DNA from: an uncultured Acidobacteriota bacterium
GTDB lineage: Bacteria > Acidobacteriota > JAQAZP01
Reading direction: 5' to 3'
NCBI GenBank assembly: GCA_963836075.1
Contig: CAWIIB010000009.1
Span: 128,001-192,000, forward strand
DNA length: 64,000 nt
Within the stretch, counting starts at the first letter, position 1. Each line of letters starts with the position of its first letter. The notes below the pieces were generated by a model. It was not told where the DNA came from, did not search any database, and saw nothing but the letters and a program-made list of their open reading frames with translations. Below are positions 58,832 through 64,000 of the stretch, piece after piece. Both the position numbers and the translations under genes were made by a program.

Positions 58832-61800
58832 ATGAAACGATTGATGCTCATCGCCGCCGTGCTCGTGCTGGTTTTGAGCCCGATCGACGCAGCGGCAGAC
58901 TTCACAACCTGTTATCCGTTGGCGGCCAGCTACAACACCGGGTCGACGGATGGAAGCAGTAAAACCCGAACCAGTGAGATCGCCGGCTACGATTCCGAGG
59001 ACGGCTGGGCGATGTTCGACACCTCGGCCATCCCGGACACGGACAGCATCGTGTATGTCGAGTTCCACTTTTACGTCAACAGCACCGACTGGCCCTGGTG
59101 GAGTCGTCACACCGCTGACCAGCGACCCGCTCACCGCCTCGGCCGCGGCGACTCTATGCCGACATCAATGCCGAAGCCCTGTCAGCGGCTACTACCACCG
59201 CCAGGAAGAGGACATTACGTTTACCACCGGGTGGAAGACACTGGTACTGGGCGGCACGGCCAACCGACTGACATGGCCGCAGACCTTGGTGACGACTGGT
59301 TCGCTCTGGGCGTGGCCAGCACGGACGACAACACTACCTTCTACATCATCGTCGACGGCTGGGCCGAAACGAACCCGCCCTACCTGGTGGTGGAGCACAT
59401 AGCCGATTCCTGCAGCAACCACCTGATTGACCTGGGGTCCATGGGCTGCGGCGACGTGCTCTCCCACACCGGTGACACCACCGGAGCCACGAACTTCTGT
59501 GGCCAACCTTCAGGCGACAATTTCCTTGAGTTCGAAGTGCTGGAGGACGGACTCTACACCCTTGACATGTGTTTCTACGAAGGGACGCTCTTCGACACCG
59601 TGCTGTGGCTCTATGACGACGAGTGCTGCGGGAACGTGATCGCGGTCAATGATGATTCCGACTACGGCTGCGGCTTGAAGTCCCGGATCGACATCGTCCT
59701 CTCGCCGGGCACCTACTACGCCCAGGTGGAGGGCTATGATGTCGACGAGGGCCTCTACCGGCTGGACATCACCTGCGACCAGCCGGTGGATCTCGGTCCG
59801 GTGCCCTGCTTCGAGGAGATCGTCTACAACCAGGACACCAGCGGGGCCATCAACTACTGCGGTCATCCATCGGGTGACGCGCACTTCAAGTTCACCGTCG
59901 ATTACACCGCCAACTACACGGTCAGCCTCTGCAATCACCTACACGTCCTACAACTCGTTCCTCCGGCTCTTTGACGATTACAGCTGCGGAAACCAGATCG
60001 CGGCCAACAACGACTACCCCGGCTGCGGCCTCAACCCCTTTATCGACGTGACCCTTGACCCCGGGCGACTACTACGCTCTGGTGGAAGGCTACCAGGATA
60101 GTGAAGGGCCGTTCGAGCTGCACATCAGCTGCAACGAGCCGGACGGCGACACCCAGCTGGAGCTGGTGCCGGACATGGAGTGCTACCAGGAGGACGACAC
60201 GGTCTACCTGGCCATCACCCTCTCCAACGGCAACGCCATGATCGTCGGCGGGCAGTTCTTCCTCGGCTACGACAATACGGCCCTCGACTTTACTGGTGTC
60301 ACCGTGGGCGACGCTCCCTTCACCAACGAGGTCTACAACGTGGTGGACGAGGGGGCCGGGACCATCGACTACGCGGTGGGTGTCCCCGAGGGCACCAGCG
60401 GTACCATCAACGACACGGTGATGGCCTACCTGACCTTCACCGCGCTGCGCGACATCTGCGCCGACGCCCGGCCTGGTCTACTTCCGCACCCACTCACCTC
60501 CCACCCGGCTCAGCGACAACTACGGCAACGCGGAATACACCGTGCTGCTGGACATGGACATCGACGACACCACACCGCCGGTGATCAGCTGCCCGGCGCC
60601 GCTGACCCTGGAGTGCGACCAGCCCACCGATCCCCCGGGCACCGGGATGGCCACCGCCACCGACAACTGCGACCCCGCCCCGGTGGTCTCCTGGAGCGAC
60701 AGTTTCGACCTCAGCGGCTGCGGCGGCACAACCGGCACCATCACCCGCACCTGGCAGGCCATGGACCACTGCGGCAACATCTCCACCTGCGACCAGGTCA
60801 TCACCCTGGTGGACACCACCGCCCCGGTGGTCACCGCCGGCGCCATCGACAGCTGTTACGGCTCGCAGATGGCGGCCGAGTCGGCAGCAGTGGCCGCCAC
60901 CACCGCGGCGGACAACTGCACCCCGTCCGGCAGCCTGCTCTACACGCCGGTCACTGCGGGTGACTGCGCAGCGACGATCACCGTCAGCGTGAGCGACCTG
61001 TGCGGCAACTCCGACTCCGTCACCTACAACACCCGCATCGACGGCCTGGCGCCGCTGGTCACCGTCGGGGGCGATATGGACGTCAACGCCGATGCCGGCA
61101 CTTGCGCTGCCGCGGTCACCTGGGCCGCCGCTTCGGCCACCGACAACTGCGACGGCAATCTCTCCGGCGTGGTCGTCTACCACATCGACCTGGGCAACGA
61201 CGGTTCAGTGGACGATGTCCAGGCCGGCCTCACTTACACCTTCCCGGTGGGCACCCACAAGGTCACCGCCACGGCCACCGACAGCTGCCTCAACACCGGC
61301 CAGGACGACTTCCTGGTCACGGTGAACGGCTACAACTCCATGGTCCTCACCCTCTCCCACGACGGTACTCTGGTCAGTCCGCTGACCCGCTGTATCACCT
61401 TCGAGCTGTGGGACTGTGCCGGACCCACCAGCGTGACCTACAAGACCGAGGTCACCTTTACCGGCGGCATCGCATCCGCCACCATCGACGTGCCCTGCGG
61501 TGACTACAGCTGTATCACCGCCCGGGACGAGCTGCACACCCTGCGGCGGACACTGGACGGGCTCTCCGTGGTGGGCACCGAGTATGTGGCGACATTCACC
61601 CTGCCGCTGCTGGGCGGCAACCTCAATGGAGATACCTATGTCGACATCCTCGATTTCGGTGTCTTCAGCTATCAATTCGGGCCGGGAGGCGGCCCCACCA
61701 CCTGCGCCGACACCGGTCCCCATGCCGACATCACCGGTAACGGGGTCGTCGGTTCCGACGACTTCTCCTTCATCCAGATCAACTTCCTCAAGGGCGACGA

Positions 61801-62020
61801 TGCCGACTGCTGCAGCAGCCCGAGCCCCATGGGCCCGGCCGACCGGCCGGTCCTCTCGATCTCGGTCGAAGAGCTGCGACGGCGCGGTCTGGGACACCTG
61901 GCCATCGGCGACCTCAACGGTGACGCCGTGCTCGACCAGGCGGACATGGCCGCCTTCATGAGCGGGGCCCGCCCCAGCCTGAAGCCACAGACAAAGGAGG
62001 GCGCATCACTGCAGGAATGA
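58832..62020 (+). CDS. Second large secreted modular protein (PPC-like beta domains, cohesin-like, HYR-like repeats, dockerin-like C-terminus) with several frameshifts
   Basis: Signal MKRLMLIAAVLVLVLSPIDAAA; repeated FDTVLWLYD..NDD..CGL...LSPGTYY; cohesin-like IVGGQFFLGYDNTALDF; ATDNCD repeats; C-terminus paralogous to the 54275 protein. Confidence 0.75.
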
Positions 62021-62045
62021 GACCCACCTCCGAATAACTGTATTG

Positions 62046-62083
62046 GCCTCGCCCCGCGTCCTGCGGGGCGGGGCATTTTTTTT
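62046..62083 (+). terminator. Rho-independent terminator
   Basis: GCCTCGCCCCGC-GTCCT-GCGGGGCGGGGC followed by A and T8. Confidence 0.85.
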
Positions 62084-62122
62084 GGAAAGTGAGCGGCGAT
62101 AGAGGGTTGGCGGAGCAGGCGC

Positions 62123-63274
62123 TCAGGCGTGCCGGCGGCGAAGCTCCGCGGCGGCGGCGGAAATGCTGCGCAGCTTTTCGGTCGCCGTCTCCTCGTCGTT
62201 GACACAGCGGTTGGCAAAGCAGCCGAAGCCGCAGTCGGGATTGAGGAAGATCTGCTGCGGCGTAAAGAAGCGCAGGGCCTGCTCGACCCGGGCCACGATC
62301 TCGTCCACGCTCTCCGGTTCGGCGGTGCGCGGGTTGACCACGCCGAGGCCGATCTCCTTGTGCGAGAGGGCCCGGCCCACCACGCCGATGTCGCCGGCCC
62401 GCGGGGTGGCGTATTCGAGGACAAACTGGTCCACGTTCATCCGCTCGAAAGCGGGGAGCAGCCTGGTGTAGTCGCCGGTGAGCAGCACGTCCTCCCGGCG
62501 GCTCCAGTTGCCGCGGCAGACGTGCAGGCCGGTGCGCAGGCCGTCAACCCCGTCAACGACACGGTTGATCAACTCGGCGGCGTATTCGAGCTCAGCACCC
62601 GCATCACGGCGGGTGGCCAGAGTCGCTCACATGAAGGTGCGGCGTCCGCACTCCTCCGACATGACGATCTCGGTGAGCACCGGTTCGTCGAACTGGACAA
62701 AGGCTGCTCCCTGGTCGCGAAGTTCCAGCAGCTCCTCGCGGAGGATGCGCACCACGTCATCACCCATTTCGGTCTTGCTGGCATACCCCTCGCCGGAGAA
62801 GGCGCCGACCCACATCGAGCGGGTGAGCAGGTACGGACCGGGCAGGGTAACCTTTACCGGAAGATCGGTCAGCCGGCGGACGAACCGCAGCTCATCCACG
62901 GCCAGCGGCTCCCGCCGGGAGAGGCGTCCCACGCAGGTCGGATTGCTGATGGCCGAGGCCGGCACGTCGAGGGTATCCAGGATCTCCTCGAAACCGGACT
63001 TGTCCTCCACCGTGTCCAGCATCTCGGCCAGGGACATCAGCTTTGTCCCGGCGACCTTGTCGGCGATGAAGGAATAGAAGTTGTCCCGCCGGTGCTCTCC
63101 GTCCACCACCAGCTCCACGCCTGCCTCTTCCTGGAGGCGGATGGTGCGGGTGATTTCAGTGTCGGCGATGCGCTCGAACTCGTCGCGCCCGATCCGACCG
63201 TGCCGCCGGTCGCGCAGGGCGCGGAGCAGGGCTTTCGACCGGGGCCAGCTGCCCACCTGGGTTACCGTGAACAT
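62123..63274 (-). CDS. Cobalamin-independent methionine synthase II (MetE C-terminal core) family protein with in-frame UGA (predicted Sec216)
   Basis: VGSWPR, DGEHRR, KVTLPGP, VQFDEP, LHVCRGN, LEYATP, NPDCGF. ORFs 62627..63274 and 62123..62572 share a frame and are joined by ATG-TGA-GCG-ACT-CTG (TGA at 62627-62629). Confidence 0.85.
62596..62615 (-). promoter_or_regulatory. Candidate bacterial SECIS element of the MetE-like gene
   Basis: mRNA CACCCGC-CGUGAU-GCGGGUG, a perfect 7-bp stem starting 11 nt after the UGA. Confidence 0.65.
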
Positions 63275-63307
63275 GTTGTTCTTGGTCCATACTGCTTTGT
63301 GTCCTGT

Positions 63308-64000
63308 CTAAACAATCGCCAGTTTCAGCTGCAGCTCCACGCGCTTTCGCCAGGGTGGAAGCCAGCGGCGAACGGGTCACCGTCCGCTCCCAGGCCCGGC
63401 GCACTTCAGCCTCGTCGTCGAGGGTGGAGGCAAAGCACTTCAGCTCGATCGAGCTGAACGACGGGTCGCCATCGTCGAGGCCGAGGTGAGCCAGCACGTT
63501 GTTCAGCTTCCCGCGGACCGAAATCTCCACGTCATCCACGTTCAGTGACTCCCTGGCGCATTCATTGGCAAAACCGGTGCAGAGGTCACCGGCCAGCGCG
63601 CCAAGGAGGTATTCCACTGCCGAGGGATGCTCGTCCCGCTCTTCGAAACTGGCCGGCTGGCCCACTTGATACGAGAAGTTCCGGCAGTAGACCGTGCTCT
63701 TCAGCCGCCCGGTGGCCCGGACCCGGGCCCGCCACTCATACTCCCGGGCGCGGGCCTTGTCCCCGGCCAGGGCCTGCTCCTCCTCCTTCACCTTCTCCGC
63801 CCCGCGGCGGATAAAGAAGCGGTCGCACCCCTCTCCGGCCAGCTGACCCAGGTAGTCGTGGCCCACCATACGGCACCAGGGGGGCAGCTCGTCACGCACC
63901 GTCACTTCGCGGCTGCGCATCTCAAGCACGCCGCCCACCGGCACCTGGAGCATGTTTTCACGGATCAGCAGGATCAGCCCGGAGCCGCAGTCGAGGTCGC
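63308..64000 (-). CDS. TusA/SirA-like domain fused to an OsmC-like domain; 5' end outside the window, frameshift near 63342
   Basis: DLDCGSGLILLIRENM...LEMRS..TVRDELPPWCRMVGH (TusA-like); PSAVEYLLGALAGDL...VEISVRG...RSPLASTL (OsmC-like). Removing one base gives ...KAVELQLKLAIV* ending at TAG 63308-63310. Confidence 0.8.

Follow-up and report, generated by a model that had tools for sequence, protein, structure and literature searches.

What does an enzyme of the methionine-synthase type do when its gene is cut by an in-frame TGA and stands behind three genes for carrier-like proteins with conserved cysteines? The question is raised by one end of a 64,000-nt stretch of DNA from an uncultured Acidobacteriota bacterium (GenBank assembly GCA_963836075.1, contig CAWIIB010000009.1, positions 128,001 to 192,000; hereafter the window, in the numbering of which positions are given). 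There, a four-gene operon on the minus strand encodes, in this order, a small TusA-like protein, a YchN/DsrE-like protein, a fusion of a TusA-like and an OsmC-like domain, and a MetE-like enzyme; the intergenic gaps are of 16, 19 and 33 nt. The TGA, at codon 216 of the MetE-like gene, is, judging by comparison of sequences, a genuine selenocysteine (Sec) codon. The enzyme itself may be a zinc thiol alkyltransferase, built like a core methionine synthase and served through Sec216 by a relay of Cys carriers, a proposal to which we give an even chance of being right. Taken as a whole, the module suggests that the chemistry of sulfur or selenium amino acids includes a selenium-dependent step not yet described.

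The MetE-like gene occupies positions 62123-63274 of the minus strand and ends with a TGA of its own (62123-62125). Under translation table 11 it appears as two open reading frames (ORFs), 62627-63274 (215 residues) and 62123-62572 (149 residues), split by a single in-frame TGA at 62627-62629; readthrough of this codon gives one protein of 383 residues, in which Sec216 lies in the motif RTFM-U-ATLA. When 20 full-length relatives (58-71% identity) were aligned, 19 had Cys in this column, within RTFMCATLA, and the remaining one a gap. We then considered codon 216 in a sample of 81 genome loci, i.e. the best 80 by similarity plus one from a genome of the same phylum: it was TGA in 67, TGC in 12 and TGT in 2. 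In the metagenome loci that cover the codon it was always TGA (53/53). Recoding of the TGA as Trp or Gly was rejected, because Cys is what the relatives have and because the gene itself ends with a TGA stop.

A SECIS-like (selenocysteine insertion sequence) hairpin, judged as such by the spacing and loop of bacterial SECIS elements, begins 11 nt past the UGA (62596-62615, minus strand), with a 7-bp stem and the 6-nt loop CGUGAU. The 65 nt behind the UGA fold at -25.9 kcal/mol (z -2.39). In an alignment of 68 Sec forms the stem is near-invariant, third codon positions included, and 89.9% of its cells are paired, versus 32.6-52.1% when the partner strand is slid; the substitutions seen comprise five G-U changes and, in the closing pair, one from C-G to A-U. 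The 14 Cys forms are without such a hairpin and have RKDP.EE-type residues in the place of RRDAG. The genome also has the means to read the codon: it encodes tRNA-SeC, selB (365.7 bits), selA (562.8 bits) and two selD. The prediction of a real Sec216, made originally from the letters of the window, thus agrees with the Cys of the relatives, the hairpin and the Sec machinery. The two selD copies, located outside the window (G000:C4:17381-18301 and G000:C9:892330-893256), each have one in-frame TGA, and both selenophosphate synthetases of this genome are predicted to be selenoproteins themselves.

The two table 11 ORFs, together with the fact that the frame of the fusion gene is shifted in the assembly (see below), could be taken to mean that the TGA is a true stop, the MetE-like gene broken or split and the whole locus decaying. 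We find this hardly credible. The same codon is TGA in the above 67 genome loci and 53 metagenome loci, over many phyla, with conservation on both sides of it and a conserved hairpin behind it; the genome has the Sec machinery, and the extra base that shifts the fusion frame is absent from near relatives. Because TGA, hairpin and gene order recur together in genome and metagenome loci, they are more than a chance association.

How Sec and Cys forms relate was seen in a quick maximum-likelihood tree. Eight Cys forms fall outside a clade made of the 67 Sec forms and six Cys forms, and these six are nested among the Sec forms of Verrucomicrobiales and Pirellulaceae; the starred branches require at least two Sec/Cys switches. 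Close Verrucomicrobiales relatives therefore appear, in this quick tree, to interchange the Sec and the Cys form.

Read through its TGA, the protein matches Pfam Meth_synt_2 (PF01717) over residues 3-351 (E 1.8e-30, 106.8 bits against a gathering score of 21), which bears out its initial description as MetE-like. Its N-terminal folate-binding domain is absent (Meth_synt_1 reaches only 16.9 bits, under the cut-off), and all the NCBIfam methionine-synthase cut-offs are far above its scores (179.9 bits versus 406 at best); the canonical MetE equivalog, TIGR01371, is not matched (91.4 versus 929.95). When the structure model (predicted local distance difference test, pLDDT, 87.9; predicted TM-score, pTM, 0.89) was submitted to Foldseek, the MetE catalytic domain 1t7l_A came out best (E 2.7e-21, TMq 0.75), and MesD 3rpd (TMt 0.81) and 1ypx were matched as well. 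In a profile alignment with Neurospora crassa MetE (4ztx), the motifs pair as GSW/GSF, DGE/HGE, FDEP/VDEP, H.C/H.C, LEY/IEN and NPDCG/NPDCG. The homocysteine-binding Ser, Glu and Asp (S433, E484 and D599 in Escherichia coli) and the four zinc ligands, as listed in the part of Price et al. (PMC7857596) drawn on here, have as equivalents S9, E60 and D196 for the former, and H251, C253, E287 and C348 for the latter. None of these seven residues varies in any of the 81 loci that covers it (80 loci in the case of S9) and, for that reason, the enzyme still looks made for an alpha-amino-acid thiol. That these are residues for free homocysteine counts, as far as sequence can tell, against one version of the original prediction, in which the acceptor was a carrier-bound thiol.

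Two other Cys are specific to the family: Cys114, present in 80 of the 81 loci, and Cys352, present in the 66 Sec loci that cover the site (66/66) and in 6 of the 14 Cys forms. The RTFM-U-ATLA stretch is an insertion relative to MetE (a gap in the 4ztx alignment). In the model it is part of a loop, residues 210-224, drawn as a low-confidence coil (block pLDDT 57) straight after strand 192-196, which bears FDEP; the geometry of the barrel would place this Sec216 loop on the catalytic face. What emerges is a 'core' MetE catalytic barrel to which a family-specific loop has been added. It shares with the catalytic domain of canonical MetE (Thermotoga maritima 1t7l/1xdj, N. crassa 4ztx) the best Foldseek matches and the aligned zinc and S/E/D sites, but differs from it by an identity of only about 21%, the want of an N-terminal domain, the extra loop and Sec.

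Could the enzyme be a plain folate-independent 'core' methionine synthase like those of the MesA-MesD group, its Cys-bearing neighbours not delivering sulfur, but supplying or regenerating the methyl donor or keeping the oxidation-prone zinc-thiolate and Sec216 reduced? Every zinc- and homocysteine-binding residue is conserved, the N-terminal folate domain is absent, and the nearest folds are MetE, MesD (3rpd) and 1ypx. The likeness to MesD/MesX is especially marked: going by the part of PMC7857596 on these proteins, a single Meth_synt_2 barrel without folate-binding domain, with the zinc and homocysteine residues, has there an adjacent partner gene, and MesD likewise requires its partner protein. 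The window enzyme is unlike MesD/MesX in that its neighbours are TusA-, DsrE- and OsmC-like, no DUF1852 gene being adjacent (the search for DUF1852 covered these neighbours and not the rest of the genome), and in that it has the extra loop with Sec/Cys216 as well as Cys114; the 3rpd profile alignment breaks across this loop. We consider a plain synthase unlikely, if a serious candidate, on account of the methionine-synthase scores, far under every cut-off, and of the nature of the neighbours, TusA- and DsrE-type proteins being known as carriers of sulfur and not of methyl groups. Moreover, a complete MetH (1202.7 bits) is encoded in the genome, where the MetE-like gene is the only one of the Meth_synt_2 type, and 19 of 32 cassette genomes have a MetH above the cut-off. 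Methionine can therefore be reached by another route than the module, although this would also be compatible with a second synthase, and MesD too co-occurs with MetH, according to the same part of PMC7857596. The words selenocysteine and TusA do not occur in that paper. One oddity concerns MetH: in a Pirellulaceae metagenome-assembled genome (that of L057; G057:C8:62806-66409) its region is matched in stop-filled pieces, which possibly reflects a broken gene or a poor assembly.

To follow the operon beyond the window, 17 kb around the window end (L002) were examined; positions past 64000 are given as window-equivalent coordinates. The fusion gene starts at 64055, its in-window part being 63308-64000. 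Upstream of it, and on the minus strand too, come the DsrE-like gene (121 residues), which precedes the fusion by 19 nt, and 16 nt before that the small TusA-like gene (82 residues; 64460-64705, or L002:3460-3705). The continuation of the operon past 64000, foreseen from the window alone, is thus real.

The end of the fusion gene required closer inspection. As assembled, its frame (table 11) continues to 63156 and overlaps the start of the MetE-like gene. Dropping one base near 63338-63343, where the plus strand reads ACGCGC, gives the C-terminus ...KAVELQLKLAIV-stop (VELQLKLAIV), with its TAG at 63308-63310 separated from the ATG by 33 nt; all of the 60 homologous fusions extracted end in ...RSP.A.TL.KA....KL..V-stop. 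The distance of about 34 nt between fusion and MetE-like start that was given in the original prediction is therefore incorrect for the sequence as assembled, and is found (33 nt, 63275-63307) only if the extra base is skipped; in relatives, this spacer carries small indels. Contigs of three sequencing runs from different studies (X2, X5 and the RNA run X20), 90-99% identical to the window, have one base fewer at 63340/63342; in run X1, which otherwise represents the stretch best, no contig covers 63139-63473. Either the assembly is in error here, or the extra base is a lesion confined to this strain. RNA contigs of X20 span 62925-63414, i.e. across the gene junction, which is at most a weak hint of transcription, as the library may contain DNA.

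Two irregularities were noticed in relatives. In run X2, the fusion gene of a near relative contains two indels, +1 and -1, at a distance of 5 nt (63663-63668), so that two codons are altered and the frame is intact. In the fusion at L079:832-1536 an in-frame stop stands where residue 179 would be, so that either this copy is broken or its sequence contains an error.

What kind of proteins are the three carriers? The N-terminal part of the fusion (about residues 1-90; 63786-64000, residues 1-18 lying past the window) contains the motifs DLDCGSG (Cys23) and LPPWC (Cys61), on which its assignment as TusA-like had been founded; both Cys are conserved in 60/60 fusions. Among 32 fusions checked with Pfam, 28 matched TusA at E <= 0.01, the window's own copy not being one of them; the latter matches NCBIfam TusA at E 0.00099. 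With a model of residues 1-238 (pLDDT 88.3), Foldseek returned the OsmC-like 2opl (E 4.1e-8), the TusA of E. coli (3lvj_C, 76 columns, TMt 0.73) and also 1dcj. By its fold the domain is thus TusA-like, with the active Cys where helix 1 begins. The usual CPxP motif of TusA is absent; CGSG is found in its place in 60/60 fusions, and CG in the small TusA-like protein.

The C-terminal part (about residues 105-248; 63311-63743) matches Pfam OsmC (E 1.4e-8), as do all 32 fusions checked, and has 2opl (GSU2788) as best relative. Profile alignment to 2opl and 3cje places Asp (AGDL) and Ser (RSPL) in the canonical Cys columns of OsmC, and no Cys is invariant anywhere in this part. It has in common with the OsmC/Ohr thiol peroxidases the fold and the Pfam family, and differs from them by these replacements, by its want of an invariant Cys and by its fusion to a TusA-like domain. 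Since both peroxidatic Cys are missing, it is not a classical peroxidase, in keeping with what had been suspected. The same two Cys are likewise missing from the free-standing OsmC-like partners of Cys-type enzymes.

The small TusA-like protein scores just 26.1 bits with Pfam TusA (cut-off 28.6), and its C21 and C58 are invariant (56/56). It also has a weak match (E 0.0022) to positions 1-51 of the NCBIfam model for the Rv1681 family of radical SAM proteins, a family which may have a similar TusA-like domain at its N-terminus. The DsrE-like protein is clearly within Pfam DsrE (PF02635, 53 bits versus 22.7); its C82 and C85 (CxPC) are invariant (59/59), its nearest solved structures are 3mc3 and YchN (1jx7), and the CxxC pair is common with YchN. 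Relays made of TusA and DsrE(FH) serve tRNA thiolation and sulfur oxidation. The module resembles such a relay (3lvj, 3mc3, 1jx7) in having a TusA fold with Cys at the usual place, a DsrE/YchN-like protein and several Cys carriers encoded together. It is unlike it in its CGSG/CG motif, its YchN-like CxPC and its endpoint, a MetE-like selenoenzyme instead of MnmA or DsrC.

Are carriers and enzyme linked outside this genome? The fusion lies upstream of the enzyme gene, on the same strand, in 60 of the 67 Sec loci of the genome sample (adjacent in 59, 3 kb away in L053), and the DsrE-like gene is present in 59 of them. The seven Sec loci without fusion include three where the contig begins inside the OsmC part (L040, L043 and L048) and one where it begins 52 nt upstream (L063). 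The reverse test was made on 80 metagenome loci retrieved via the fusion gene: the MetE-like gene was downstream in 68 of the 69 loci with at least 200 nt of downstream sequence, and the DsrE-like gene upstream in 61/61 with at least 450 nt upstream. Synteny of fusion and MetE-like gene is near-obligatory in both directions, and the pairing on which the original prediction turned is thus conserved elsewhere. Beyond the four genes, no other neighbour recurs in more than six cassette loci. Going by record titles, the cassette occurs in at least 11 phyla, with near-identical copies in runs from salt-marsh, marine and freshwater sediment. Its distribution is patchy: 1 of 40 other genomes of the phylum has a relative, which is a Cys form, and two genomes of the same genus (91% and 100% complete) gave no match.

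The surroundings of the Cys forms are different. The fusion is found in 0 of the 14 Cys loci, a free OsmC-like gene is near 10 of them, and Cys forms are accompanied by an SBP-like gene (11 loci) and an acyl-CoA-dehydrogenase-like gene (9 loci). In several Cys loci the order is OsmC-like, Rv1679-family acyl-CoA dehydrogenase-like, Rv1680-family SBP-like, MetE-like, the two Rv families being matched at 383.1 and 215.1 bits, both under the cut-offs. Two Sec forms, L061 and L094, also have the dehydrogenase and SBP genes. In L019:681-3239, from a genome of the same phylum (G015), a two-domain rhodanese (3-mercaptopyruvate-sulfurtransferase-like) adjoins a Cys-type MetE-like gene (51% identity) and an OsmC-like gene. 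Given these contexts of Sec and Cys forms, the Cys-less OsmC-like module is the constant partner of the enzyme. Tight operons of the Cys type were seen at L056:3443-7143 and also in L052, L067, L093 and L095; the SBP-like protein is cytoplasmic there, and L052 has in addition a thioredoxin-like gene.

These neighbours allow a further explanation, that a small sulfur-containing metabolite or cofactor is made or repaired, with the enzyme alkylating a thiol other than an amino acid and the link to methionine being merely ancestral. The Cys-type operons, with their OsmC-like, Rv1679-family, Rv1680-family and MetE-like genes, are in its favour, as is the weak match of the small TusA-like protein to the N-terminus of the Rv1681 family. 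The NCBIfam set Rv1679 (acyl-CoA dehydrogenase), Rv1680 (SBP-like) and Rv1681 (radical SAM) is indeed like the present system in that the Cys-type relatives of the enzyme adjoin Rv1679- and Rv1680-family genes; it is unlike it in that these genes are absent from the window operon. We regard this explanation as very improbable. Literature on the function of the Rv1679/Rv1680/Rv1681 set was not found among the matches listed.

Selenium could be more than a residue of the enzyme. The carriers might hold Cys-S-Se and the enzyme alkylate selenide or a seleno-amino acid, for the sake of detoxification, of a selenomethionine-type metabolism or of selenophosphate supply. The forms linked to the cassette are almost all Sec, and sel genes are present in the fetched flanks of 3 of the 81 genome loci (L069, L076, L054) and 5 of the 80 metagenome loci (L113, L121, L157, L158, L170). 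But sel genes are often near selenoprotein genes of any function, the Cys-type relatives stand beside rhodanese, acyl-CoA-dehydrogenase-like and SBP-like genes with no evident link to selenium, and no YedE or YedF family match was obtained at E <= 0.01; we judge a selenium-handling module decidedly unlikely. In some Bacteroidota and metagenome loci selA, selB or selD was seen directly upstream of the cassette (L069:3-4446, L076:2-4368, L121:60-968 and L157:86-1000).

The relay of Cys carriers, our preferred reading, can be spelled out as follows. The carriers would hand sulfane sulfur (persulfide) from Cys to Cys or, alternatively, selenium or another thiol-bound group. Sec216 would be the final acceptor of the relayed group, which the flexible loop would then move into the zinc site, where a zinc-activated thiolate would make or break, on an amino acid resembling homocysteine, a C-S (or C-Se) bond; resolution of the Se-S intermediate may fall to Cys114 or Cys352. 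The OsmC-like domain, being without Cys, could be a docking or substrate-holding module. We count in favour of such a relay the rhodanese beside the Cys form in L019 and the OsmC-like partner in 10 of the 14 Cys forms, both of them sulfur-transfer contexts. In its stricter form, i.e. a Sec on a mobile loop that takes sulfur or selenium from a dedicated TusA/DsrE/OsmC-like relay to the zinc site, for a C-S or C-Se bond on an amino-acid skeleton, the idea is tentative and open to more doubt than belief, and any single named reaction is much less probable than the relay as a whole.

Several observations weigh against this reading. The cassette is missing from three Sec loci (L058, L088 and L094) although 6 kb of sequence lie upstream in each, and one fusion locus, L177, is without enzyme gene. 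The homocysteine-binding residues would suit an ordinary free amino acid, and the carriers need not contact the active site. With its frame shifted, the fusion of this assembly might be inactive here. As to Sec, covariation in the hairpin is modest, three pairs being altered on both sides, and its conservation is the main support; no Rfam family was matched, a permissive scan of 61900-64000 having given five matches, all far under the gathering scores. Lastly, the locus counts are not independent, as the loci sampled are best-scoring relatives that are akin to each other.

What would the module add? Selenocysteine insertion is costly, and for that reason Sec usually marks a catalytic residue; a near-fixed Sec in a MetE-type enzyme would thus imply a chemistry outside the repertoire of known methionine synthases. 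With its four genes the module is compact; it is also widespread, and it is missed by gene callers because the enzyme gets cut at the TGA. It would add a family to the prokaryotic selenoproteome, and it makes the connection of sulfur relays on proteins with the chemistry of amino-acid C-S bonds open to direct test. If the stricter form of the relay is true, anaerobic sediment bacteria of many phyla would be able to obtain homocysteine, methionine or the seleno-analogues of these by a route that depends on carriers and not on pyridoxal phosphate (PLP). A published description of such a selenoprotein or operon was not found among the full-text matches listed, which do not extend to supplements and subscription journals. 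Neither PF01717 nor methionine synthase nor homocysteine occurs in a 2026 review of the prokaryotic selenoproteome (PMC13188914), its table included; a 2022 review (PMC9312934) has none of methionine synthase or homocysteine, and the Haft 2022 preprint none of methionine synthase, MetE or OsmC.

Some features of the surroundings remain to be described. Upstream of the operon lies a divergent gene, on the plus strand, for a membrane protein without family match. A promoter scan yielded a single plus-strand site and none for the operon. When L002 and 10 cassette loci were searched with Rfam at its gathering scores, the sole match was a tRNA in L066, and no riboswitch was seen upstream. On the other side, the MetE-like gene converges with a plus-strand gene, 60542-62020, which codes for the C-terminal portion of a large repeat protein rich in Cys and whose product has a tail that is dockerin-like, by impression only. 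Between this gene and the MetE-like stop, a G+C-rich hairpin (62046-62074) with a T-run on the plus strand only looks like a strong terminator of the convergent gene.

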